A stretch of DNA of 51,125 nucleotides, taken from positions 1-51,125 of the IMG/VR virus record IMGVR_UViG_3300042851_000008, one strand, 5' to 3'. A model generated the notes under the pieces. The model saw only the letters and a list, made by a program, of their open reading frames with translations, made no database searches and had not been told where the DNA came from. Position 1 is the first letter of the stretch. Every line of letters starts with the position of its first letter. Below, in pieces: positions 2,731 through 42,812 of the stretch. The stretch is from a virus (taxonomy: Duplodnaviria; Caudoviricetes). A program made the translations under genes and the position numbers.

Positions 2731-3113
2731 TGCCGTCGACGGTGTGTATCGGCTGCATGCAGATCGTCGACAAGGTCGAGCCCGCTTCCAGGCGTTGCCT
2801 GGTGAACGGCTGCCATAAGCGGTGGGAGGATGCCAGGAACGCGCAGCCCGCCGGGCAGGCCAGAAGGGCGATCACGAAGCAGCGGCGGCAGCGGATCTAC
2901 CGCCGCGACGGGTTCAAATGTGTCCGCTGCGGGGCCGGGAAGGACTTGACGGTCGGGCATGAGCCGCCGTTGGCTGAGCAGCTGGATCCGCGCAGGCACT
3001 ATGCGGATGAGGAGTTGGTGACGGAGTGCCAGTCGTGCAACTCGAAGGCTGGGGCGACGGTGCGTCGGTCGGTGCCGGTTGAGTCTTCGTCGTCTGAGCC
3101 GCTGATCGCATGA
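2730..3113 (+). CDS. HNH endonuclease (terminase-associated type)
   Basis: RQRIYRRDGFKCVRCG...LTVGHEPP...ECQSCNSK. Likely start is ATG 2730 within the 2103-3113 ORF. Confidence 0.85.
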   Translation: MPSTVCIGCMQIVDKVEPASRRCLVNGCHKRWEDARNAQPAGQARRAITKQRRQRIYRRDGFKCVRCGAGKDLTVGHEPPLAEQLDPRRHYADEELVTECQSCNSKAGATVRRSVPVESSSSEPLIA

Positions 3114-4333
3114 GCGACGCGCCCTCCATCTTCGGCGAGCCGATCGACCAGCGGGCGTTGCAGCAGATCGAGAACTGCCTGCGCGACGACCGTGCTGTGG
3201 CCGGTGCGCTCATGGCCGACCATCATCTCGGCTACTCGATGCCGATCGGCGGAGTCGTTGCCTACCGGGACGCGATCTCCCCGTCCGGCGTCGGCTTCGA
3301 CATCGCCTGCGGAAACAAGGCCGCGCGGACAGAGCTCGAAGTGGACTTCGGCATCAAGTACGACCTTGGGCGGCTCATGGGTGACATTCGCAAGCAGATC
3401 GCGTTCGGGATCGGCCGCTCGAACGCGGAGCCGATCGACCACGACCTGTTCGATGATCCGCTCTGGTCGGAGATCGACAAACTCGTGCCGGGCTTGCAGG
3501 AGAAGGCGCGGGCACAACTCGGCACGGTCGGCTCAGGCAACCACTACGTCGACTTGCTCGTGGATGAGGATGGGCGGCTCTGGGCCGCTAACCACTTCGG
3601 CTCGCGCGGCTTCGGGCACACCGTCGCCACGACGTTCCTGAACCTCGCCGCGGGACGCGCGCCAACCGAGCGGGCGAAGGACGAAGAAACCCCGGCCGTG
3701 CTCGACCTCGGCACCGAGACGGGCGACCTCTACATGGAAGCGATGAAGCTAGCTGGGCGGTACGCCTACGCCGGCCGCGACTACGTCATGGATCAGGTGC
3801 TACGGATCCTCGGCACTAAGACGACGTTCGAGGTTCACAACCACCACAACTTCGCCTGGGAGGAAGACGGCCTAATCGTCGTCCGCAAAGGTGCGACACC
3901 GCTCACCGAAGACCCCGCGTTCATCGGCGGCTCGATGGGCGACGTGTCCGTGATCGTTCGCGGTACGGGCGAGGACATCGGAGCGCTCGCCTCTGCCCCA
4001 CACGGGGCGGGCCGTGTGATGAGCCGCACGCAGGCGGCAGGCAAGTGGATGAAGCAGCGGGTGACGCGCACCGCGCCGGACGGGACGACCTACGAAAAGA
4101 AGATCCGGGTCCGCAACAAAGCGACCGCCGCGATCGACTGGGATGCGGTACGAGCCGACCTGGACGAGCGCGGGATCGTCGTCCTCGGCGCTGGCGCGGA
4201 CGAAGCGCCAGGCGTCTACAAGAGCCTCGAAGCGGTCCTATCGCACCATCCGAACATCGAAGTGCTGCACCGACTCGAACCGCTCGGTGTGGTCATGGCG
4301 GGCGAGGACGAGTTCGACCCGTACAAGGATTAG
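3110..4333 (+). CDS. rtcB: RNA-splicing/repair ligase RtcB
   Basis: MADHHLGYSMPIGGV, GVGFDIACG, LGTVGSGNHY, HFGSRG, HNF, RKGATP, GSMG, SAPHGAGRVMSR, DEAPGVYK. Confidence 0.96.
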   Translation: MSDAPSIFGEPIDQRALQQIENCLRDDRAVAGALMADHHLGYSMPIGGVVAYRDAISPSGVGFDIACGNKAARTELEVDFGIKYDLGRLMGDIRKQIAFGIGRSNAEPIDHDLFDDPLWSEIDKLVPGLQEKARAQLGTVGSGNHYVDLLVDEDGRLWAANHFGSRGFGHTVATTFLNLAAGRAPTERAKDEETPAVLDLGTETGDLYMEAMKLAGRYAYAGRDYVMDQVLRILGTKTTFEVHNHHNFAWEEDGLIVVRKGATPLTEDPAFIGGSMGDVSVIVRGTGEDIGALASAPHGAGRVMSRTQAAGKWMKQRVTRTAPDGTTYEKKIRVRNKATAAIDWDAVRADLDERGIVVLGAGADEAPGVYKSLEAVLSHHPNIEVLHRLEPLGVVMAGEDEFDPYKD

Positions 4334-27028: not shown

Positions 27029-30000
27029 ATGGCTAACGCGCTCTCACTCGGGTTCTCAACGCACGTCCTGAAGTACGGGGCCAGCGCCGGCAGCTACGTT
27101 CAGCGGCTTGCCGCAACCGGCGTCGACACAATCCGCGACGACCTTTCCTGGTCGACGTTGCAGCCGGGCGGACGCGGCTCCGCCTTGGTCACCGGCCCGG
27201 TCAACACCCTCTGCGGCCTGTGCCGCACCAACAACCTGAAGCTGATCCCGATCGTCGGCTACTCCCCCGCCTGGGCGAACGGCGGCCGCGACGACAAGAC
27301 CGGCCCGGTCCTCGCCGCGGACTTCGGCGACTACGTGGCGACGCTCGTCACGTTCCTGCAGGCGAACTGGTCGGACGTTGTGATCGCGATCGAATACTGG
27401 AACGAGCCCGACATCGGCTTCCTCAAGAACCCGGCCACCGGCGCGCAGGGCGACGCCGCCTACTACGCCTCCCTCGCCGCGGACGCGTACGGCAAGAAGC
27501 CGGGCGGCACGACGATCAAATACTGGGGCGGCGCCTCCTCCGGGGCGGCCCCCGACTGGGCCTGGAACGTCATCACGGCGATGGGCGGTGTCGGCAGCCT
27601 CGACTTCGACGAGTGGTCGTTCCACGCCTACCCGGCCTACAACCGCGCGCTTGGCACCCCGACGAAAACGGCGGAGCAGATGCTCGACACCACGGTCGCG
27701 TCCGCCTGGTCGGAGGCGTTTTGGCGGCCGCAAACCCACGGCACCTTGCTCGACGTCCTCAACCACTTCGGCTACGGCGGGCAGATCCACAACACCGAAG
27801 CCGGTGTGCCGACATTGCCTCCATCGGGCGCCGATGTCGTCGACTGCCACCCGGAAGCGCAGCAGCGGCGGTGGCTCGAGCTGCTGTGGCCGATATGGAC
27901 CGCCCAGCCGCGCACGGGCCTTTTCATGATCTACACGGGCCAGGACGACGACACGAACACCAGCGCGAGCCCGCCCGGACGGGAGGCGCACTTCGGCGGC
28001 TTCCACACCGACACGACCGCGAAGCCGATCATCGCCAGCCTTCAGGCGCTCACCGCCGGCGGGGTGACCGCCTACTCGAACGTCGTCGGCCCGATTGTCG
28101 CGCTGATCGGCACTGCCTACTCCAACGTCGTCGGGCCGGTCGTGGCCGCTGACACAACCGCGCCGACCGTGAGCCTGACCGCGCCCGCGAACGGCGCCGC
28201 CGTGTCCGGTCCCGTGACGATCTCCGCGACCGCGGCAGACAACGTGGCGGTCGCGCAGGTTGATTTCCTCGTCGACGGGATCGTCGTCGCCACCGACGTG
28301 TCCTCCCCGTACTCGGTCTCGTGGAACTCTGCGCTCGCCTCGAACGGCAGCCATACGATCACCGCCCGGGCGACCGACACGTCCGGGAACGTCACCACGA
28401 GCGCCGCCCGCACCGTCACCGTCAGCGGCGGCATCGCCACAGCCACGCACCTCGCCGAACCGTTCCCCACCCTGCTCTTCGACATCGACTTCCCCGACAA
28501 CATTCTTGCGATCCCGTACGCGGCCCAGGTGCTCTCAACCACCGGAGATCAGGCGCAGCATCCGCTCCCGCTCGGCTACTACCGCCACCAGGCCGCCTCT
28601 GGGACTGTCGCGGCGGAAGCCCAGGGGAAGACTGCGGGCACGTACGGCGGCACCATCAGCGCCTACCACGTCGCGTCCCCGGTAGCCGCCGACGACTACG
28701 CAGTCACCCTAGGCTCGTCAGGCGTGTTCTACGCTGGCGTCCCGTACTCGTCGAACGCTGGTGACATCACCCCGTACGGGATCACGATGTGCGGCTGGTT
28801 CAAGGCCGGGACGATTCCGGGTGGGGTTCCCTGGGTCGGGCTGTTCACAAGGGCGACCGCAGTCGAGCTGTTCCTCTCGCCCGGCGGCCTGCTGTCGATC
28901 GGAGCCGCCGACAATAACCCACAGAGAGGCACGACCGCGATCGCGGCTGGCGAGTGGTTCTTCGCCGCCCTGACGATCTCCGGCACGGCGCCGCCGGACG
29001 ATCCGAACCAAGACCCGACCGGGTTCGCCTCCGTCTACCTGATGAAGTTGTCCGACCTTGTCCTCCGCAAGGAGGTGACTGCCGGGCAGCGTTTCAGCGA
29101 TCAGTGGGCTGGGGCGGCACCGACCACGGTCGGCTACAACGCCGGCGGCTTGTCGATCGACGAGACCGCCTACTGGGTCGGGCAGCTCACGCCTCAGCAG
29201 CTCTCGGACATCGCCGGACGCGCGAACCCGAGCAGCTTCGTCTACCCGAACTACGTGTGGACGGCAATGGACGGCGGCACGGTGTCGAGCCCGGTTCCTC
29301 GTCTCGCGCAGGGCCTCTCAACCGCCCGCGGCCGGCAGACCGAACGGGAGCAGCCGACAGCCGGGCAGGTCAGCGCCACCGTCGAGGACACCCTTCGCGC
29401 ACTCGAGCCGGACTACCCGGCCTCCCCGTACTACCCGAACGTCATCAACAACCGCTACGCCCGCCTCCGCGCGACCGTGAGTCCGACGACGTACGACCTG
29501 ATGCGGTTCTTCATCCCCGACTGGAACCCCGGCTGGACCTTACGCCGCGCCTACCTCACCTTGGCCGGCACCGACCTGCTCGGCGTGCTCGGCACCTGGC
29601 CGCTCTCAGGATCGTTCCAGCAGCAGCAGACCGGCGCCCGCATCAACGCTGTCCTCGACCGTGTCGGCTGGCCTACCGCCGCCCGAGCGATCGACGCAGG
29701 CACGCAGACCGTCGCCGCGGAAACCGTTGTCGGCGGCGGCACCCTCACCTACCTGCAGCTGATCGCCCAGTCCGACAACGGCCTCTTCTTCATCGACGCC
29801 GCCGGCAACGCCGTCTTCCACGACAGCGCCCACCGCACCACCGCCACCCGCTCCACCGTGCCGCAAGCCGTGTTCGGCGACGGCGGCCCCTCAACCACCG
29901 AGCTCCCCTACGTGTCCGTCGCGTACAACAAGCCCGCCGACGAGATTTGGAATCAGGTGACAGTGAAGTACGGGGCGGCCGGGGATCAGTCGGTCACGGT

Positions 30001-33439: not shown

Positions 33440-33620
33440 CCCGCTCCTCCCGCCTGGGCAGCAACGCGATCACGATGACGCCGAGCCAGCCGAGGATGAA
33501 GCCCCACGCCCATCCGTACGGACGATGCTTCGACTGACCGATCTGGTGCGCGATGTAAATCGGGAGCAGCCAGACGATCGTGACGAGGAACAGGATCCAG
33601 ATCCAGTACAGAAGGCTCAT
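33420..33620 (-). CDS. Small two-TM membrane protein (possible superinfection exclusion)
   Basis: Hydrophobic, WGFILGWLGVIVIALLP; co-oriented with the repressor. Confidence 0.75.
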   Translation of the reverse strand: MSLLYWIWILFLVTIVWLLPIYIAHQIGQSKHRPYGWAWGFILGWLGVIVIALLPRREERVTPSVS

Positions 33621-33771
33621 GCGGTCCTTTCGTTGGCGGGGAAAACTTTACGTTGTCTTTCGGAGGTGGCCGGTATAGATTCCCTGCCAACGATCTGCGG
33701 CCCCCCTAGCGGACATATCCATCGGCGAGAGAGGGGCAAGGTCATGGGAGAAGTAGCGGTTGAGGAGCTGG

Positions 33772-34173
33772 TCACGGCTCCGATCCGTCCGCGCGTCCAG
33801 CAGTTCTGCCAGTTCGTCGACGCTCTAGTTGAGCGATCCGGTTGCCCAGATCAGCTAGGGCGACCTCGGTCGCCTCTGTTAGTGCGTCAACCGATGCTTC
33901 GAGTCCTCGTAGGCGGGACTCATGGTCATCCGACAGACGACGTACCTCCTGAGCGAGCGTCTCTTGTACGAGTCGTTTAGTCAGAGCGTCCTCATCGGCG
34001 TCTAACGCGTGCGCGAGCACCCGCGCGTTCGAGTCGTGGATGCCGTGTCTGGCGTTCGGCGATTCCCACGCTGAGATCCGTTCACGCTCGTAGCCGGCCT
34101 TTTTAGCGAGCTGTGCCTGAGTTAAGCCCGCCCGCAATCGAAGCAACCGGAGCACCTCTCCTTGCAACGTCAC
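33772..34173 (-). CDS. Xre-family immunity repressor
   Basis: LRLLRLRAGLTQAQLAKKAGYERERISAWE; divergent from the cro-like gene. Start uncertain (34155/34173/34191). Confidence 0.85.
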   Translation of the reverse strand: MTLQGEVLRLLRLRAGLTQAQLAKKAGYERERISAWESPNARHGIHDSNARVLAHALDADEDALTKRLVQETLAQEVRRLSDDHESRLRGLEASVDALTEATEVALADLGNRIAQLERRRTGRTAGRADGSEP

Positions 34174-34219
34174 GGCACAAGTTTGCGACACGTGTGGTTT
34201 CCCCGCTAGAGGGGATTTA

Positions 34220-34248
34220 TTGACACGGCGCGCAACGTGTCGTAATAT
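34220..34248 (+). promoter_or_regulatory. Early lytic promoter with overlapping operator
   Basis: TTGACA-N17-TAATAT; the inverted repeat GACACG...CGTGTC (34222-34241) overlaps the -35 and spacer. Confidence 0.8.
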
Positions 34249-34257
34249 CGCCACATC

Positions 34258-34545
34258 TTGGACGCAACAAGGGATGAGCTTCAGGAGCGGATCCGTCAGG
34301 CCCCAGCTGCGCTCGTAGCGGCGCGGATCCGGAAGGCGCGACGTGAAGCGAATCTCTCGCACGACCGACTGGCGGAACTCGTGCAGGGCACAAGCCGCTC
34401 GCACCTCATCAAGCTCGAGAAGGCGATGCATCGGCCGCGCGCGGCGATGCTGAGTCGGATCGCGGAGGCGACAGGTCGAGAGATCGACTGGTTCCTGGAT
34501 CCCGAGGTGGATCCGAGTCCCTTTCCGGAAGAGGCAGCCGCATGA
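34258..34545 (+). CDS. Cro-like Xre HTH protein
   Basis: RIRKARREANLSHDRLAELVQGTSRSHLIKLEK. Confidence 0.85.
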   Translation: MDATRDELQERIRQAPAALVAARIRKARREANLSHDRLAELVQGTSRSHLIKLEKAMHRPRAAMLSRIAEATGREIDWFLDPEVDPSPFPEEAAA

Positions 34546-34618
34546 GGATGAGTTGGCGGATGCGCTCATCGCAGCCTTGCAGGAGTTCAAACGTGCCCAT
34601 GACTGAGGAGGAGACAGC

Positions 34619-35278
34619 GTGATCGAATGGGACGAATACGAGGCGACGATTCGCTTCGAGGACAGGCTCATCGGCGGCATCCCGGTGATGCCCGCCGGGA
34701 GTGACCCGCAGGCTTACGAGGGCTGGCTTCGAGGGCAGAAGGTCGAGAACGATCCGAGCTTCGAGAAGGGCCTGGCGGAAGTCCTCGCAGCCGACTCCGA
34801 GATGCCGGTCGCCGTTGCGGAAGATGCGCCGACCGAGCAGGGCTTCCGGCGCGGCAAGGACGGCCTGTATGTCGAGGCCCGGCAGGTGAAGGCGGCGATC
34901 AAGGAAGGGTCACAGCGGCTCGGCCTGCTCAAGTCGGTGCGAGGGATGCGGCAGGTGATCCAGCACGACATCCACGTCCGGGCGTTGGACGGGACGCAGC
35001 GTCTCTACCTCGCCCGGGCCGAGCCCGACGGGAAGGACGCTAGGCCGATCTCGGTGCTCACGCCGCAGGGGCCTCGCCAGTCGATCAAACGGTTCGAGTA
35101 CGTGAACCAGCCTGAGATTCGCTTCGTCGTCCGCGTCCTCAAGGGCGGGATTGGCGAGGGGATGATGACCGAGGACTTGCTCCGCGATGTTCTCGAGCTC
35201 TGCGGTTCGCTTGGCCTCGGCGCCGACCGCTCGCAGGGCGAAGGAACCTTCGTGCTGGAAGAGCTGAAGCGGATCTAA
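34619..35278 (+). CDS. Stand-alone Cas7-like RAMP protein
   Basis: N-terminal strand YEATIRFEDRLIGG, LYVEARQVKAAIKE helix, thumb-like PISVLTPQGPRQSIKRFEYV, C-terminal G-rich loop LGLGADRSQGEGTF. GAGGAG RBS. Confidence 0.82.
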   Translation: MIEWDEYEATIRFEDRLIGGIPVMPAGSDPQAYEGWLRGQKVENDPSFEKGLAEVLAADSEMPVAVAEDAPTEQGFRRGKDGLYVEARQVKAAIKEGSQRLGLLKSVRGMRQVIQHDIHVRALDGTQRLYLARAEPDGKDARPISVLTPQGPRQSIKRFEYVNQPEIRFVVRVLKGGIGEGMMTEDLLRDVLELCGSLGLGADRSQGEGTFVLEELKRI

Positions 35279-35581
35279 CCGATGCGACGTCCCGCGACGC
35301 GCCCTTCCGAACAGCGCCCTCCCGAGCCGCCCCAATGAGACGAACCGTTCCTGGCCCTCCCGACCCGTGCCGATGCGACATCTCGTGCCATTCCGGCACC
35401 GAGCCGCGCCGATGCGACGATTCGCTCCCTTCCCTTCCCGCCCGGGCCGAGCCAACGCGACGAGCCTTTCCCGCCCGCGCCGTCCCATGCCGATGCGACT
35501 CGCCACCCCGGGCCAGCTCCGCCCGGCCCCGTCCGAGCCGATGCGACGAGCCTTCCCAAGCCCTCCCGTGCCCACGGCGAC
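35279..35581 (+). repeat. Array of seven units: 8-nt handle + (NNN-CC)5-9; putative guide-RNA array
   Basis: Handles at 35281, 35334, 35372, 35411, 35454, 35492, 35540 and 35574; spacings 53, 38, 39, 43, 38, 48, 34. 42 of 47 pentamers end in CC. Confidence 0.9.
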
Positions 35582-35606
35582 CTCTCACCATCTGGAAAGG
35601 CATCGC

Positions 35607-35813
35607 GTGACGCCCTGGAGCTACACCGGCCGCGCCCGCCAACTCCTCACCATCGTGCAAGACGACGAACGCACCCGCGCGGCAGACGAACTCCTCGCCG
35701 AAGTGCGCGACCGCAAAGACCAGGCGATCGAAGACCAGCAGTACGAGAAGGCGGCGTCCTATCGTGACGCCGAGCGGAAGGTCACCCACATCCTCCGCGA
35801 GGGCGCGGCGTGA
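35607..35813 (+). CDS. 68-aa UVR-domain protein resembling ClpC fragments
   Basis: DELLAEVRDRKDQAIEDQQYEKAASYRDAERKV matches the UVR/ClpC M-domain motif; GGAAAGG RBS. Confidence 0.8.
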   Translation: MTPWSYTGRARQLLTIVQDDERTRAADELLAEVRDRKDQAIEDQQYEKAASYRDAERKVTHILREGAA

Positions 35814-36133
35814 CCCCGGACCCGCCCGGGATGCTGGTCGTGATCGTCAGCCGCCACGCGCTCGAACGGGCCCGCGACCGCTACCGCGACCCCGCGATCA
35901 CGAAACAGAGCATCGCCCACGACATCCGCGAAGCCCTCACAGCAGGGCGCTACGCGAAGCATCATCCGGGCAACCACTCCGACCATCTGCCGCACGGTGC
36001 GACGTTCGCGTGGACGGGGGCGGGGCACCGCGTTTACATCTTCGCCAGGCAGCGGCATCGTGAGACCGGGAAGCCGTGCGTGGTTGTCCGGACGGCCGTG
36101 CTGGCCGGGCCCCGGCAGGTGGCGGCGGCGTGA
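35810..36133 (+). CDS. Hypothetical protein
   Basis: GTGA-coupled; VSRHALERARDRY motif. Confidence 0.65.
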   Translation: MTPDPPGMLVVIVSRHALERARDRYRDPAITKQSIAHDIREALTAGRYAKHHPGNHSDHLPHGATFAWTGAGHRVYIFARQRHRETGKPCVVVRTAVLAGPRQVAAA

Positions 36134-36410
36134 TCGACGAGTTCCCCCCGGATCTGACCCCGCGCGACGTGCTGGTCATCATGGCCGTCTGGGTCGTGGT
36201 CGCGTTCGTCGCGGCGGTCGTCATGTGCAAGTGGTGGCTGAGGTGACCGCCTCGAGGCGTCCTGATCGTTTGGGGATCCCGGAAACGACGGGCGGGGCAA
36301 CCCCTGGCAAGGGCAGCCTCGGTGACGCTCTCATCGTCGTCGCGTTTCTGGTCGTGCTGCTGGCGTGCGTCGGTGTTGTGTTCCTCGTCGCGTCGGGTCG
36401 GTTCTAACCC

Positions 36411-36767
36411 GTGGCGTCGTTGGCAGGCCAGGCTTCGCCGCGTCGCTCGCAGGTCGACCGGATCCTCGCTCTGCTTGCCGATGGTGACTGGTGGACGACG
36501 GGTCAGCTGCTGGCGAACGTGCCGTGCATCGTTCATTCGCGGATCGCGGAGTTGCGGTCGCGCGGCCATGTGATCGTGCATGAGCGGACGGGGTTCGGGG
36601 CTGCGGGGCATCGCTACCGGCTGTTGGGTGAGCCGTGTCCTACCGCGTCCCTTGGGGGCGACCCTGTCGCGGCTCGCTCGGTTTCTCTGGAGGGCGGCGC
36701 CGCGGTTGAAGCAGCGGGGGCATCGCCGCCCTCCGAGCCTGAGCAGCTGACCTTGGCGGTCGCCTGA
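36411..36767 (+). CDS. Winged-helix DNA-binding protein
   Basis: SQVDRILALLADG...SRIAELRSRGHVI...YRL. Confidence 0.7.
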   Translation: MASLAGQASPRRSQVDRILALLADGDWWTTGQLLANVPCIVHSRIAELRSRGHVIVHERTGFGAAGHRYRLLGEPCPTASLGGDPVAARSVSLEGGAAVEAAGASPPSEPEQLTLAVA

Positions 36768-37185: not shown

Positions 37186-37457
37186 TGCGCCGCATCCTGA
37201 CCGTCTACCTCGAGACCGTCGCCGACCTCAGAGAACCCACCTGGGCTGACCTGCTCGAAGCGATCCGCATGGGCCACATCGACAAGGCGGCCGTCCTCGA
37301 CAGCCTCGTCCCGAACCTCCAAGACATCACCGACGCCCGCGCAATCCTCGAAGGCACCGCCACCGTCGCCACACGACCCACCGCATACCGGCCCGGAACT
37401 GGCGGCGGCTTCGTCGGCGAGATCATCGACGAACTCACCGGAAGGACAAAGGTATGA
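37185..37457 (+). CDS. Hypothetical protein
   Basis: TAGTG-coupled start after GAAAGGA. Confidence 0.6.
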   Translation: MRRILTVYLETVADLREPTWADLLEAIRMGHIDKAAVLDSLVPNLQDITDARAILEGTATVATRPTAYRPGTGGGFVGEIIDELTGRTKV

Positions 37458-38563
37458 CCGCCCAGCCCGGCACCGCCCTCGAACCCCGCGACGCCGCCCG
37501 CGACCTCGCCAACACCATCCGCGGCGACCAGTTCAAGCAGCAGGTCGCCGTCGCGCTCCCCGAAGGGGTCAACCCCGACCGGTTCGTCCGGATCATGGCG
37601 ACGGCGCTGCTCGACAAGCCCGAGATCGCCGTTCAGTGCGACATCAACTCGATCTTCCAAGCCGGGTTGAAGGCCGCGCAGGACGGGCTCCTTCCTGATG
37701 GACGCGAGGCCGCGTTCGCGGTGTTCGGCGACCAGTGCGTCTACATGCCTATGGTCGGCGGGTTCCGCAAGATCGCTGCCGAGTACGGCTGGTCGCTCCG
37801 CACCGCCGTCGTGTACGCCAACGACGCGTTCGAGTACGAAGAGGGGGAAGAGCCGCACCTCATCCACCGGCCCGTCCGGCCGGGTGCGGAGCAGGGCGCG
37901 AAGATCGCTGCATACGCGGTCGCGCAGCACAAGGACGGCCGCCGACTGTTCGAGGTCATGGATGCCGCCGCCGTTTTGAAGCGCAAGGCGGTCGCCCGCA
38001 CGAAGAAGGTGTGGGACCAGTGGGAAGAGACGATGTGGGAGAAAACGCCTGCGAGGCGGCTCTTCGGAAAACTGCCTTTGGATGAGGCCGACCGGGCGCG
38101 TGTCGAGCGTGTGCTCCAGGCGTCCGCGCTCGAGCCTGGCGAGGCGGCCCGCACCATGTACGGCGACGAGGACCGAACGCAGCTTCCGCAGATTCCGCCG
38201 GCCTCTGACCCCGAGCCGGTGGACGGCGAGGTCGGCGCAACCGGCGGCGAGGAGCACTTCCCCGAAGACGCTCCCGCCGCCGCGACCCCGCCCGCCGACT
38301 TCGCAGACGACGCACCCACCAGCACGTTCGAGCCGCCCGCGTCCGTCCGCCAACAGACGGAGCCGTCGCAGACCGACCTGCTCACCGCCCAAGCCGGCGA
38401 GGTCCGGTTCCACGCGAACACGAAACAGCACGGCGGCAAGACGATCGCGGAGGTGTGGCACGACGACCCCATGTTCATCCGGAAGACAGTTGAGCAGGCG
38501 ATCCGGCCCGAGTTGAAGGAGGCGGCGCGCACGTACCTGGCGGCGATGGAGGCGAAGGCGTGA
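37454..38563 (+). CDS. recT: RecT-family ssDNA annealing protein
   Basis: PDRFVRI, AAQDGLLPDGREA, YMPMVGG, VYANDAF, WETMWEKT. Confidence 0.9.
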   Translation: MTAQPGTALEPRDAARDLANTIRGDQFKQQVAVALPEGVNPDRFVRIMATALLDKPEIAVQCDINSIFQAGLKAAQDGLLPDGREAAFAVFGDQCVYMPMVGGFRKIAAEYGWSLRTAVVYANDAFEYEEGEEPHLIHRPVRPGAEQGAKIAAYAVAQHKDGRRLFEVMDAAAVLKRKAVARTKKVWDQWEETMWEKTPARRLFGKLPLDEADRARVERVLQASALEPGEAARTMYGDEDRTQLPQIPPASDPEPVDGEVGATGGEEHFPEDAPAAATPPADFADDAPTSTFEPPASVRQQTEPSQTDLLTAQAGEVRFHANTKQHGGKTIAEVWHDDPMFIRKTVEQAIRPELKEAARTYLAAMEAKA

Positions 38564-38913
38564 GCGTTCCGACCGCGCAAGTCAGCTTCCTCCGCATCCC
38601 GATCTCGCTGCCATGCCCCGTGCCAGTCCTGCCTGGCACACCGACAACGATGGACGAAGAGGGAGAGCCGATCCCGGTGGCCGAGCGCACCGAGAAGTGT
38701 GCCGTGGACGCCTGGTGGATGATCGGCGCCCAGGTCACCTGCGACGTGCATCTCCGCGAAGCGTGCGGCCTGCTCGACCTCGACTTCGACGGCATCGTGG
38801 AAGAGGCGACCTGCGGGCGCGGCCTGAACATGCGCGAGCTGCAGCCGTGGGGCGAGCGGCACCGGTACGCGCAGGATGATCCGGCGCTCAAGACGGCGGA
38901 GACCGGGGCGTGA
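38560..38913 (+). CDS. Hypothetical protein
   Basis: GTGA-coupled on both ends. Confidence 0.65.
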   Translation: MSVPTAQVSFLRIPISLPCPVPVLPGTPTTMDEEGEPIPVAERTEKCAVDAWWMIGAQVTCDVHLREACGLLDLDFDGIVEEATCGRGLNMRELQPWGERHRYAQDDPALKTAETGA

Positions 38914-39086
38914 GCGACTTCGAGCAGGCCGGGGAGCAGCACTCCTCAGTGGCTGTCTCGATGACCGCAAAAGGCGAAGCGACCGTCACCGTCAAGGCGT
39001 ACACCCATGACCTCGACACGCTCGACGCGGCCCGGGAGAAGGCCGTGCAGGTCTACAACGACACCGTCCGGCAGGTGCGCTCATGA
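38910..39086 (+). CDS. 58-aa hypothetical protein
   Basis: MSDFEQAGEQHSSVAVSMTAKGEATVTVKAY...; coupled on both ends. Confidence 0.65.
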   Translation: MSDFEQAGEQHSSVAVSMTAKGEATVTVKAYTHDLDTLDAAREKAVQVYNDTVRQVRS

Positions 39087-40381
39087 AGATCCTCTGCACC
39101 GGCGATCTCCACCTGGGCGCGGGCGCGGATTATGGGCGTGAGCCCAGCGACCGCCTCCGCGACCAGGAGAACGTGCTCGTGAGCATCGCCCAGGTCGCAC
39201 GGGAGGAGGACGTCGACGTCGTTCTGATCGCCGGCGATGTGTTCGACCGGCCGCGTCCTGACCCGGACGTGCTCCGCGTGTTCGACCGTTTCGTTGACCG
39301 TGTGACGGACGATTCGCTCGGCATCGACTGCGACGTGCTCGCCATCACTGGCAACGCCGGCCACGACGTCAGGAACGCGGAGACGTACGCGGCGCTCGAG
39401 CTCTTCGCGCGTCGCATCGACGTTCGCCGGATGCCCGCCCTGTGGCAGACGCGCGGCTTGGCGGTCGCGACGCTTCCCTCGGTGCCGGTGTCCCGACTGG
39501 TCGCGAGCAGGAACGGCGGCGACCGCTCAGCGATTCATCAGGACGCCGCCGACTACCTCGTGCAGGTCGCCAGGGATCTGCGCGCGGAGATCCCCGAAGG
39601 CACACCGGCCATTCTGCTCGGCCACTGGAGCGTGTCGGGTGCGAGCCTCCCGAACGGGCTGCCCACCGACGCACTGAACGAGCCTGTGCTGCCCCTGGAG
39701 GATCTCGCTGGCCTGGGCTTCGATGCCATCGCGCTCGGCCACATACACCGCTCGCAGATGCTCTACCGCCGCCCCGAGATCTTCTACGTGGGCTCACCGA
39801 TGCCGCTCAACTTTGGCGAGGTCGAGCCTGCGACCGTCATGCCCGGGTCGTACCACGGCGTCACGATCCTCGACAACGCGCACGGCTATTTCGAGGCGCG
39901 ACATGTGGCGATCGAGTCGCGCGCGTTCGTGACCATCGCCGCCGACCTCACCCGTGCGCACGAAGCTGATGCTTCCCCGGTCACGCATGACGGTCAGTTT
40001 GACACTTCCGATTTCGGCCCCTCAAATGAGGGAGCAAAACCGGAAGGGCTCGAACCGACCAACATCATCGCGGCCGCCTGCGAGGAGCATTTCCCGCTCG
40101 ACGAGGCGATCGTGCGCCTGCGGGTCAAGGCGACGGCCGAGCAGTGGCGCCGAGTCGACCAGGCGGCTTTGCGACGTTTGTGCATCGACGCGGGGACCTC
40201 GAAGATCTATGCCATATCCGCTGACGTGGTTCGCGAGGACCGGGCGCGGGTGGCGGGGTTGGACGAGTCGATCGACGAACTCGGCGCCCTGGACGCCTAT
40301 ATCGAGGCGAACCAGCTGAACGGGAAGGCTGACGCGCTCAGGGAGCGGACGGCCCGGTATCTCGAGGAGACGCGCGCGTGA
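39083..40381 (+). CDS. sbcD: SbcD/Mre11-family nuclease
   Basis: GDLHLG, IAGDVFD, GNAGHD, ALGHIH, YVGSP...FGE. Confidence 0.92.
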   Translation: MKILCTGDLHLGAGADYGREPSDRLRDQENVLVSIAQVAREEDVDVVLIAGDVFDRPRPDPDVLRVFDRFVDRVTDDSLGIDCDVLAITGNAGHDVRNAETYAALELFARRIDVRRMPALWQTRGLAVATLPSVPVSRLVASRNGGDRSAIHQDAADYLVQVARDLRAEIPEGTPAILLGHWSVSGASLPNGLPTDALNEPVLPLEDLAGLGFDAIALGHIHRSQMLYRRPEIFYVGSPMPLNFGEVEPATVMPGSYHGVTILDNAHGYFEARHVAIESRAFVTIAADLTRAHEADASPVTHDGQFDTSDFGPSNEGAKPEGLEPTNIIAAACEEHFPLDEAIVRLRVKATAEQWRRVDQAALRRLCIDAGTSKIYAISADVVREDRARVAGLDESIDELGALDAYIEANQLNGKADALRERTARYLEETRA

Positions 40382-40545
40382 GCGAGTACCTGCCCGTCGA
40401 CGAGCGCGACCCCGTTCTCCTGTTCGCCTACGGCCTCGTCGCCCTCTCTACGTTCGTCTCGTCTTACAGCCAGCACAGGAACACGATCGAGTTCAAGACG
40501 AGCGACGGTGGCGAATACCGCATCACGATCGAGGCGAAGAATTGA
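40378..40545 (+). CDS. 55-aa hypothetical protein
   Basis: Fills the sbcD-sbcC gap with 4-nt overlaps. Confidence 0.6.
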   Translation: MSEYLPVDERDPVLLFAYGLVALSTFVSSYSQHRNTIEFKTSDGGEYRITIEAKN

Positions 40546-42812
40546 ACCCGCTCAGGATCCGCTGTGAGAACTACCGCAGCTTCCACGACCTCGACCTGCA
40601 GCTGCCGACCGGCACCCTCGCTATCCTCGGAGCCAACGGCGCCGGAAAATCGAGCATTGTGAACGTGCTCGAGCTGGCGTTGTTCGGCCCGCCGTCCCGC
40701 AACCTCGGCGACTACCTCACGGATGGGGCGGTCGGGGATCTGATGGTGGAGCTGGAGCTGGAGCATCGCGGCGACCTGTACCGGGTGCGGCGCAGCTACT
40801 CGGCGCGCGGCCGTGGCTCGGCCAAAGTCGACTTCGAGTACGTCATGCCTTTGATCCCGGACCCCGATGAGGAGTACGACGAGGGTGTCGTACCTGGCTC
40901 GCATTGGGCACCGCTGACGCGCGAGACCGCCGCCGAGACTCAGGCTCTGATCGAGCAGACGCTCGGACTCTCCCGCGCCACCTTCCGGGCCAGCGCGTTC
41001 CTCGCGCAAGGCGACGGCGCCGCCTTCACGGAAGCCAGCCCCCGCGACCGCAAGGCGATCCTTGCCGAGTGCGTCGGCCTCGACCAATGGGACCGCCTCC
41101 ACGCCCGCGTCAAAACCGACCGTGCCGCCGCCGAATCCGAAGTGAGCCGCGGCACCCTCGCGATCGAGCAGGCCACCGAAGAACTCACCTACCGCAAAGA
41201 CACGATCACGGAACGCGACGCCGCCGACAGCGCCCGCGGCCTCCTTGCCGCCAAGCTCGACGCCGACCTCCAGAACGTGCACACCTGGGAAGAGCGGCTC
41301 AGCACGGCGCAGGTCGCACGGGAGAAGCGGGCGGCCGTGGAGGAGCGATGCCTCGCCGCCCGCGCAGCCGTCGCAGCCGCTGAGAGTCGAGAAACGAAGC
41401 TCGCTGTCGAGCGGGAGCATGACCTCCTCTACGCCCTCGCCCGTCGCCCAATGCTCGCAGAGCGGGCAGAGACGCAGGGAGCGCGCGAAGCCGAGCACGC
41501 CGACCTCGTCAAAGCTACGCACGAATACGCGAGCGCCGAACGGGAAGTCGCGCAAGCCGTAGCCGAACACGAGCGCCTCACCATCGAACGAACCCGCCTC
41601 CTCGACGAAGCGAATGCCCTCGACGAAAAGGCCCGCGCGGATAGCGCCGCAGCCGAGCAGATGCTCGAAGCCGACGCCCCGACCTGCCAGACCTGCGGAC
41701 AGGAACTCGAAGGCGACGCGCGCGGCCGCGCCGTCGACGCGCTGATCGAGGCGGCCGCCACGGGCGAGGCTCGCGCTGTCACCCTCCGGTCGCAGGCGCA
41801 CGACCTCGAAGCGTTCATCAACGAGCAGAAGCCCATCGCCGGCCGGGCCCTCACCCCGCCCGACCCGGAACGCACAGCCACGGCCCTCGCTCAACTCCGT
41901 GCCGCCCGCGACGCAACCACCCAGCTCGCCGCCCTCGACGTGAAAGCCGAGCGGCTCGCGGTCGTCGACGCTGCCCTCGTCACGCTCCGCGACGAGCGGC
42001 CAGCCCTCGACACAGCGCTCGCGCAGGCCACCGCCGACCTTGAAGCCCTCGGCGCCGCCCCCGCGATCGCCGCCGTCCAAGCCAGCCTCGACGAAGCCAA
42101 GGAAACCACGAACCGCCGCCGCACCGAACTCGCCCAGGTCGACCGGCAAATCGCCCGCTGCGACGAACGCCTCGAACGCTACGCCACCCTCACCGCCCAA
42201 ATCGTCGAACGCCGCGAAGGCATCGCAGCAGCACAAGCCGAGCTCGACCTCTGCCTCACCCTCGAGAAAGCGTACGGCCGCGACGGCATCCCCGCCCTCA
42301 TCGTCGAGAACGCCGCCATCCCGCAGATCGAAGCGGAAGCGAACCGGATCCTGCAGGAGCTCGGCACCGACTACCGCGTCGAACTCCAAACCCAGCGGGC
42401 GCTCAAGAGCGGGGAGGGCTTCAAGGACACGCTCGACATCGTCGTGTGGGCAGGCAGCGCCGCACGGCCTTACGAGACGTTCAGCGGCGGCGAACGGACC
42501 CGTCTGAACCTGGCTTTGCGGATCGCGCTCGCCAGGCTGCTCGCGCACCGCCGCGGCGCCGAGGTGCGCATGCTTTGCATCGACGAGCCCGAGTTCCTCG
42601 ATGAGCAAGGGACGGCCGCCCTCGCCACGATGCTCCAAGGTCTGGCCGGCGACTTCGACCGGATCCTCCTCGTCTCGCACCACCCCTCTCTACGTGACGC
42701 GTTCGAGCAGTCCCTCGAAGTGGTGAAGGACGGCGACCGGTCCCGTGTTGTCGGCGCTGACAGGGAGCCAGTGTCGGCGTTTCTGCGGGGCGAGAAAGCA
42801 CAGGCAGCATGA
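40542..42812 (+). CDS. sbcC: SbcC/Rad50-family ATPase
   Basis: GANGAGKSS, Q-loop FLAQG, Zn hook CQTC, FSGGE, CIDEP, VSHH. Confidence 0.93.
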   Translation: MNPLRIRCENYRSFHDLDLQLPTGTLAILGANGAGKSSIVNVLELALFGPPSRNLGDYLTDGAVGDLMVELELEHRGDLYRVRRSYSARGRGSAKVDFEYVMPLIPDPDEEYDEGVVPGSHWAPLTRETAAETQALIEQTLGLSRATFRASAFLAQGDGAAFTEASPRDRKAILAECVGLDQWDRLHARVKTDRAAAESEVSRGTLAIEQATEELTYRKDTITERDAADSARGLLAAKLDADLQNVHTWEERLSTAQVAREKRAAVEERCLAARAAVAAAESRETKLAVEREHDLLYALARRPMLAERAETQGAREAEHADLVKATHEYASAEREVAQAVAEHERLTIERTRLLDEANALDEKARADSAAAEQMLEADAPTCQTCGQELEGDARGRAVDALIEAAATGEARAVTLRSQAHDLEAFINEQKPIAGRALTPPDPERTATALAQLRAARDATTQLAALDVKAERLAVVDAALVTLRDERPALDTALAQATADLEALGAAPAIAAVQASLDEAKETTNRRRTELAQVDRQIARCDERLERYATLTAQIVERREGIAAAQAELDLCLTLEKAYGRDGIPALIVENAAIPQIEAEANRILQELGTDYRVELQTQRALKSGEGFKDTLDIVVWAGSAARPYETFSGGERTRLNLALRIALARLLAHRRGAEVRMLCIDEPEFLDEQGTAALATMLQGLAGDFDRILLVSHHPSLRDAFEQSLEVVKDGDRSRVVGADREPVSAFLRGEKAQAA

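Follow-up and report, generated by a model that had tools for sequence, protein, structure and literature searches.

Systems named VIPR, short for Viral Interference Programmable Repeat, have been described as phage systems of RNA-guided DNA silencing (bioRxiv 10.64898/2026.04.26.720920, 10.64898/2026.04.26.720927). According to the preprint text, their protein, Vipr, is a minimal phage-borne RAMP and its RNA, the vrRNA, consists of 9-16 YNNGG repeats followed by a 3' tail; double-stranded DNA is recognised through the NN bases under a rule that skips one base, and competing phages and satellites are silenced in a nuclease-free manner (10.64898/2026.04.26.720920). A second text assigns one Vipr protomer to each repeat, with guanine-specific contacts (10.64898/2026.04.26.720927). 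The first text also distinguishes seven VIPR types, names NNNGG, YNNNG and NNNNG as alternative repeats, reports 'staggered' back-to-back arrays as well as ribozyme-spaced arrays, finds degenerate positions inside the vrRNAs of working systems to be frequent, and places a vap gene 'typically', not always, in a two-gene operon with vipr (10.64898/2026.04.26.720920). Further preprints describe non-canonical 5-mer arrays beside Vipr-like folds (10.64898/2026.10.21.760802) and the conflict between phage SUSP1 and its satellite (10.64898/2026.10.15.759431). Here we analyse a stand-alone RAMP gene and the pentanucleotide array directly behind it at positions 34619-35581 of IMG/VR record IMGVR_UViG_3300042851_000008, a phage genome of 51,125 bp that is referred to below as the window. 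A first-pass annotation had put this locus forward as a candidate RNA-guided system and had named VIPR as a possible relative; as far as the preprint texts go, that system exists and works as stated there, with one protomer per pentamer, a sequestered constant part, a gapped target and nuclease-free silencing. The implied novelty of the kind of system was not supported, as it is already in print, with NNNGG repeats and staggered arrays included in the preprint text. With a probability of roughly 55%, we read the locus as a VIPR system guided by sense-strand RNAs in which CC is the constant dinucleotide.

The array starts 2 nucleotides (nt) after the stop codon TAA (35276-35278) of the RAMP gene, which bears out the claim that it follows the gene directly, and comprises seven units on the plus strand, each consisting of an 8-nt handle and 5-9 pentamers. 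Handle GATGCGAC opens five of the units, namely unit 1 (35281-35333; nine pentamers, seven of them ending in CC), unit 3 (35372-35410; six pentamers and one extra base, four ending in CC), unit 4 (35411-35453; seven pentamers, six ending in CC), unit 6 (35492-35539; eight pentamers, seven ending in CC) and unit 7 (35540-35572; five NNNCC pentamers). Unit 2 (35334-35371), with handle AATGAGAC, and unit 5 (35454-35491), with handle AACGCGAC, carry six NNNCC pentamers each, and a degenerate terminal handle with no unit behind it, CACGGCGAC (35573-35581, plus strand), closes the array. The unit lengths of 53, 38, 39, 43, 38, 48 and 33-34 nt agree with those given earlier; the predominance of CC was likewise borne out, with the exact count corrected on recount from 42 to 41 of 47 pentamers. 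Base autocorrelation within the array was highest at lags 5, 10 and 15 (0.49, 0.45 and 0.40, respectively), all remaining lags up to 30 giving values of 0.22-0.38. Runs of at least four CC pentamers contained 31 pentamers; shuffling this stretch 2000 times gave 2.3 on average and never more than 20. Of the 12 such runs in the window, 6 fall in 35317-35572. Five of the window's seven exact copies of GATGCGAC lie on the plus strand within the 267 nt of 35281-35547, and this 8-mer is not enriched genome-wide (68 matches with at most one mismatch vs 92 expected). The periodicity of the array is thus far beyond chance. Open frames cross the array on both strands (35335-35610 and 35367-35813 on the plus strand, and long frames on the minus strand), and the array might be translated as a proline-rich repeat protein. 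We give this next to no credence: a 5-nt period cannot hold a reading frame, the unit lengths in the window put the handle in all three frames, the 8+5n units of relatives are not multiples of 3, and long spurious open reading frames (ORFs) are expected at 67% GC.

The vipr-like gene itself (34619-35278, plus strand) encodes a 219-aa stand-alone RAMP with helix-1 at residues 87-100, a thumb hairpin at about residues 138-163 and a G-rich loop, GLGADRSQGEG, at residues 199-209. Its ORF contains both motifs quoted in the first-pass annotation as RAMP/Cas7 hallmarks, LYVEARQVKAAIKE and LGLGADRSQGEGTF, and its GC content by codon position (0.72/0.41/0.86) is typical of a real gene in a genome of 67% GC. 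An AlphaFold2 model built with 29 relatives in the alignment reached a mean predicted local distance difference test score (pLDDT) of 89.7 and a predicted template modelling score (pTM) of 0.82, and in Foldseek this model matched Cas7-type RAMPs over its full length (type VII Cas7, Cmr4, Cas7-11 and Csm3, E ~1e-7). The best matches among predicted viral structures were uncharacterised phage proteins, one of them annotated as a RAMP superfamily protein (E 2e-12). By this model, the window protein is predicted to have a Cas7/Csm3-type RAMP fold, in line with the hallmarks initially noted. Searches at the level of sequence returned little: Pfam, RAMP models included, gave no match at E <= 1; PHROGs gave two matches only, both of unknown function (E 0.048 and E 0.29); NCBIfam and PADLOC gave only sub-threshold Csm4 matches at residues 183-217, over the G-rich loop; a PDB sequence profile search gave only chance ribosomal matches, and megablast of the locus against phages gave none. 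The protein nevertheless belongs to a sizeable family, with 582 representatives at E <= 1e-3 in a 50%-identity library, which is mostly viral (72-100% viral among atlas neighbours). All 22 family-invariant residues are kept in the window protein, invariance being defined on an alignment that includes it.

The G-rich loop and the sub-threshold Csm4 matches are shared with the backbone proteins of class 1 CRISPR systems (Csm3, Cmr4, type VII Cas7 and the Cas7-11 domains). The window differs from these systems in having a single RAMP, no other cas genes and no CRISPR array, and in the step of its array, which is 5 nt and not 6 nt. Neither long direct repeats with spacers, nor cas1/2, nor an effector cas gene was found in the window; as the first-pass annotation had it, no cas family was recognised among the 47 window ORFs scanned against Pfam, and no CRISPR-like array was found by Tandem Repeats Finder. 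The 8-nt handle, which ends in ...AC and stands ahead of a plus-strand guide, recalls the 8-nt 5' tag of CRISPR RNAs (crRNAs).

For comparison with VIPR, the Vipr of SUSP1 was located as a 195-aa ORF at 28474-29061 (minus strand) of the SUSP1 sequence, in which residues H17, E71, M72, R138, D177, W178 and R179 match the numbering used in the text of 10.64898/2026.04.26.720927. Comparing 191 relatives of the window protein with 119 relatives of SUSP1 Vipr, hhalign aligned 133 columns, which span helix-1 through the G-loop, at a probability of 94.2% (E 1.1e-7). Because of this profile-profile match to the SUSP1 Vipr family, we file the window protein as a distant member of the Vipr family, and we take the locus to be a genuine, new member of the VIPR family and not a categorically new system. 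It has Vipr homology at the profile level, a viral, non-CRISPR context and an adjacent pentanucleotide array of at least 4 units; the canonical GGY/NN was not found on the vipr strand, the gene-sense strand carrying NNNCC. Like VIPR type II, known from Escherichia phage SUSP1 and a Pseudomonas fulva prophage, the locus is borne by a phage and encodes a RAMP of about 200 aa that stands alone and has an RRM core, a thumb and a G-loop; it likewise lacks cas genes and belongs to a group with 5-nt arrays of a constant dinucleotide plus hypervariable bases placed directly upstream or downstream of the gene. Several features set it apart from type II. The SUSP1 vrRNA, as described in the preprint text, has 9-16 YNNGG repeats and a long structured 3' tail, whereas in the window units of 5-9 pentamers are separated by an 8-nt handle only, with no structured 3' tail after the repeats, nothing above noise in Rfam searches of the array and no significant fold on either strand; the third constant base (Y) of SUSP1 is not kept in the window clade; no vap gene was recognised at the window locus; and the G-loop reads GLGADRSQGEG in the window vs GVGDWRPRFG in SUSP1. 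Most conspicuously, the gene-sense strand carries GG in SUSP1 and CC in the window clade, and the array polarity of the clade is therefore inverted; comparison with the SUSP1 locus upheld the earlier remark that CC on the gene-sense strand and discrete short handles distinguish the locus from published GGY/NN arrays. Other VIPR variants (NNNGG/YNNNG/NNNNG repeats, staggered arrays, non-canonical 5-mers) resemble the window, according to the preprint texts, in that the constant part departs from GGY, vrRNAs follow one another without spacers and Vipr-like proteins lie beside arrays, and the locus possibly belongs to the published 'NNNGG' or staggered-array variants. The passages of the VIPR preprints that were compared here make no mention of a CC constant or of antisense arrays.

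We then examined whether arrays accompany the gene in relatives, a check that the first-pass annotation had proposed. IMG/VR contributed 30 of the 114 loci assembled, genomes 4 and metagenomes 80; of all these, 112 hold the gene and 94 are distinct. An array was scored where at least 8 pentamers in CC runs lay within the flanks of the gene. A CC array was present beside the gene in 53 of the 94 distinct loci, vs 13 of 94 after block-shuffling of the flanks; the 41 loci without an array include many short contigs. GG runs reached the array threshold in only three of the 94 (L001, L005 and L015). In array-bearing relatives CC was always on the gene-sense strand, and this orientation was the same throughout whether the array lay upstream only (16 loci), downstream only (33 loci) or on both sides (3 loci). 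A handle ending in (C/G)GAC recurs in relatives at 30-60% protein identity, and a terminal handle also closes the arrays of L002, L022 and L033. Of 266 units in relatives, 145 had a length of 8+5n; the modes were 28, 33 and 38 nt, a family-typical unit having 4-6 pentamers. The 347 distinct units were unique except between near-identical contigs, a hypervariability as expected of guides. Downstream of a 34%-identical relative, a very long array of the NNNCC type, of about 1.6 kb (L003:3126-4714), has 49 unit-length intervals and 156 pentamers in CC runs. Near-identical contigs share most of their units, and the related contigs L051, L053 and L054 have only some in common (3 and 1), which hints at unit-by-unit turnover of the arrays. 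A 31%-identical relative is the last annotated coding sequence (CDS; 37713-38459) of the cultured Microcystis phage Mae-JY09 (PP395641.1); it is followed by an array of about 11 NNNCC units with CCGAC handles (L117:3196-3600, about 38459-38860) and then by a strong GC hairpin, and the deposited record leaves this array unannotated. Being a cultured phage with the same system, Mae-JY09 makes the strand question experimentally approachable.

The array might also act as DNA, that is, as iterons of a replication origin, a partition or packaging site or an operator array, the RAMP-like protein being unrelated or DNA-binding. The locus does lie in the early/replication region beside a cI/cro-like pair and upstream of RecT, and short conserved handles at variable spacing resemble iterons. 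Against this, phages of unrelated backbone have the array together with the RAMP gene (53 of 94 loci) and no neighbour gene in common, the triplets are hypervariable while CC and handle are fixed, which is the signature of guides and not of operators, and profile comparison relates the protein family to an RNA-guided protein. We consider an array of iterons very improbable.

In the sense-strand CC reading, the array would be co-transcribed with vipr from an early promoter at 34220, on the plus strand, as part of an operon in the order helix-turn-helix (HTH) gene, vipr, array and downstream gene. From the anatomy of the locus, cleavage of the transcript at its ...GCGAC handles would release seven short guides, each with 5-9 pentamers, and the 8-nt handle would act as a crRNA-like tag in place of the long structured 3' tail of the SUSP1 vrRNAs. 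If the array is transcribed with vipr and cut at the handles in this way, the protein-bound constant in the clade would therefore be CC and not GG. By analogy with the published homologue, protomers would polymerise along the RNA, one per pentamer, burying the constant dinucleotide and offering the variable bases to a competing mobile element's double-stranded DNA, and this DNA would be silenced by binding, without cutting. For the guides of the clade as a whole, the full set of properties (sense-strand RNAs, a CC constant, a crRNA-like 8-nt 5' tag and three free bases per protomer) is put forward only tentatively, at somewhat less than even odds.

The tight packing of arrays into the vipr operon is our reason for favouring the sense-strand CC reading. 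The strict co-orientation of array and gene, wherever the array lies, also speaks for it. Ten of 19 upstream arrays end at most 58 nt from the start codon, several of them at the ribosome-binding site, and 13 of 36 downstream arrays begin at most 27 nt past the stop codon; in the window and in L033 the next plus-strand gene follows the array at once. In the window and in L002, L006, L043 and L051 the array is preceded by sigma-70-like sites on the plus strand, and no minus-strand site of this kind was found behind any of 61 arrays. RNA of the sense strand is predicted to fold weakly (-96.6 kcal/mol, z +1.4) compared with the antisense RNA (-159.3 kcal/mol, z -1.0). In Mae-JY09, which showed no consensus promoter or terminator sites, all 13 CDS listed for the two record ends analysed are on the plus strand and the array comes after the last of them. 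Four soil metatranscriptome runs contain parts of the window operon, one contig spanning vipr into units 1-2 (35019-35360). Granted that the locus is a working VIPR system, we regard sense-strand guides as probable, if well short of certain.

The principal alternative keeps the same family and the canonical chemistry: the array would be transcribed from the minus strand, antisense to the operon, yielding (GGNNN)n vrRNAs with a short 3' GUCGC tail, equivalent to the published 'NNNGG' repeat. In its favour, GG is the protein-bound constant, with guanine-specific contacts, in every Vipr studied according to the preprint texts, and NNNGG repeats and staggered arrays are both named there (10.64898/2026.04.26.720920). 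On the minus strand, moreover, the GUCGC of the handle keeps the register of the pentamers on its 5' side, which gives the published order of repeats and then 3' tail. In the antisense reading of the triplets any base can stand next to GG, C accounting for 36-40% and G for 26-32% of cases, a faint echo of GGY. Also in its favour, 7 of 61 arrays have terminator-like minus-strand sites at the end nearer to vipr. Antisense transcription, on the other hand, would have to start from a minus-strand promoter located within the gene that follows the array (window, L033) or, if arrays reach the ribosome-binding site of vipr (L019, L022, L102, L036), within the 5' end of vipr itself, and no minus-strand sigma-70-like site lies behind any of the 61 arrays. 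Nothing in this alternative explains a constant antisense orientation both upstream and downstream of the gene, and the antisense RNA is strongly self-structured. Overall we consider antisense GG guides rather unlikely, though far from negligible.

Several results weigh against sense-strand CC guides. All characterised Viprs bind GG, and the variants listed in the preprint texts are only GG- or G-based (10.64898/2026.04.26.720920, 10.64898/2026.04.26.720927); read on the minus strand, the array is exactly NNNGG. T-rich hairpin sites on the minus strand at the vipr-proximal array end (7/61) outnumber those on the plus strand at the far end (1/61) and would fit antisense transcripts. In the consensus-site tally over the 61 arrays, promoters (plus 3, minus 0) and terminators (plus 1, minus 7) point opposite ways; the minus-strand T-run of L003 is merely the Lys codons of vipr, and the strongest hairpins flanking 31 arrays showed no side preference. 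The metatranscriptome evidence consists of unstranded assembled contigs of low depth with possible DNA carry-over, in which uncovered stretches carry no weight. Only the profile-profile comparison links the window protein to SUSP1 Vipr, as the profile against the single SUSP1 Vipr sequence (E 0.32) and a plain hidden Markov model (E 0.36) were not significant. Family units of 4-6 pentamers are also shorter than the 9-16 repeats given in the preprint text. No accessory (vap) gene was conserved or recognised; the neighbours in the window are the HTH_3 gene and a UVR-motif gene, homologues of which were not found beside relatives' genes, where no neighbouring gene was conserved.

We also searched for natural targets of the guides. 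Sixty guides of at least 6 pentamers were compared with about 0.5 Mb of DNA, each strand being searched by 10 rules (reading bases 1-3, 1-2 or 2-3 at skips of 0-3); the outcome was no different from that of shuffled guides and no pairing rule emerged, and the lack of a target again counts against sense-strand guides. Exact scans of IMG/VR with units 1 and 6 as joined triplets gave 0 matches each at skip 0 and at skip 1, exact matching being a weak test that carries no information on the rule. The failure to find a target would suit a decayed or idle relic, a VIPR-family gene and array no longer working in the window phage, as would the 6 of 47 pentamers without CC, the unit with an extra base and the degenerate terminal handle. 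Set against this are the intact ORF with its normal codon bias and its 22 family-invariant residues (on an alignment that, in defining invariance, includes the window protein), the frequent internal degeneracy of vrRNAs reported in the preprint text for working systems (10.64898/2026.04.26.720920) and the presence of operon parts in RNA libraries. A relic is accordingly given only a small chance.

In the composition of the triplets, sense-strand stop triplets numbered 50 over all arrays vs 78.8 expected (0 of 2000 permutations as low), whereas those of the reverse complement showed no deficit (48 vs 51.5 expected). The sense deficit is mainly of TAA and TAG, and may reflect a codon-like origin of the guides or plain avoidance of TA. 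Codon-usage log-ratios of the triplets were positive in 26 of 53 loci with a mean of 0.02 bits, the codon tables being contaminated by antisense ORFs.

One IMG/VR contig (L005, 2011-3890) carries two different Vipr-type genes in tandem on one strand. The contig has first a GGC/NN array, then the SUSP1-like Vipr gene (G-loop GIGRWRPR; BLASTP E 5e-9) with another GGC/NN array behind it, next a gene of the window family followed by an NNNCC array with GCGAC handles, and last a third GGC/NN array. The NNNCC array, lying between canonical GGC/NN arrays, shares the plus strand with them, which counts in favour of sense-strand guides, and the contig may represent a natural pair of orthogonal systems.

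The 51,125-bp record is a complete phage genome with terminal repeats and 67% GC, nearly all genes of which are on the plus strand; the phage is a temperate soil phage. Pfam identified the large terminase, portal, prohead protease and capsid protein, a tape-measure-like protein with an NlpC/P60 domain, an amidase, RecT, an SbcCD-like pair, a tyrosine integrase and RtcB. The vipr-like ORF lies within the early/replication region, upstream of RecT, as second gene of a rightward operon. This operon is preceded by a sigma-70-like site matching the consensus (TTGACA-17-TAATAT; 34220-34248, plus strand), the sole promoter-like site on both strands of 33600-36600 (mean of 0.2 in shuffles). Its first gene is cro-like (34258-34545, plus strand; Pfam HTH_3, E 1.3e-9), which agrees with the earlier placement of the locus just after cro; together with a divergent cI-like HTH_31 gene identified by Pfam (33772-34200, minus strand) it looks like a cI/cro switch. 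Directly downstream of the array follows a gene for a 68-aa protein with a UvrB/UvrC (UVR) motif (35607-35813, plus strand; Pfam UVR, E 4.5e-7), which starts 26 nt past the closing degenerate handle. Elsewhere in the window, and unrelated to this locus, an RtcB-type RNA ligase is encoded at 3110-4330 (plus strand; Pfam E 1e-64); ligases of this type repair cleaved tRNA, and the phage copy might be a countermeasure to anticodon nucleases of the host. At 39083-42809 (plus strand), next to RecT (37454-38563), a calcineurin-like phosphoesterase is encoded together with an AAA_23/SMC_N ATPase, and the two look like a phage SbcCD pair.

The first descriptions of VIPR date from 2026, and experimental characterisation covers a few types. 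The locus and its approximately 50 relatives define a clade with inverted array polarity and short units split by an 8-nt handle, and the locus may be a variant in the polarity and chemistry of its guides. Should the guides be antisense GG RNAs, the locus would be an ordinary further member of the family and the gain mainly one of annotation. If sense-strand CC guides are true, the family would have at least two orthogonal protein-RNA recognition chemistries: Vipr proteins would have switched base specificity and perhaps the reading rule (e.g. triplets vs dinucleotide plus skip), giving a second orthogonal programmable code with an architecture nearer to class 1 crRNAs than that of published VIPR types. 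This would bear on the evolution of the code, on the proposed link from VIPR to CRISPR and on the building of orthogonal programmable repressors.

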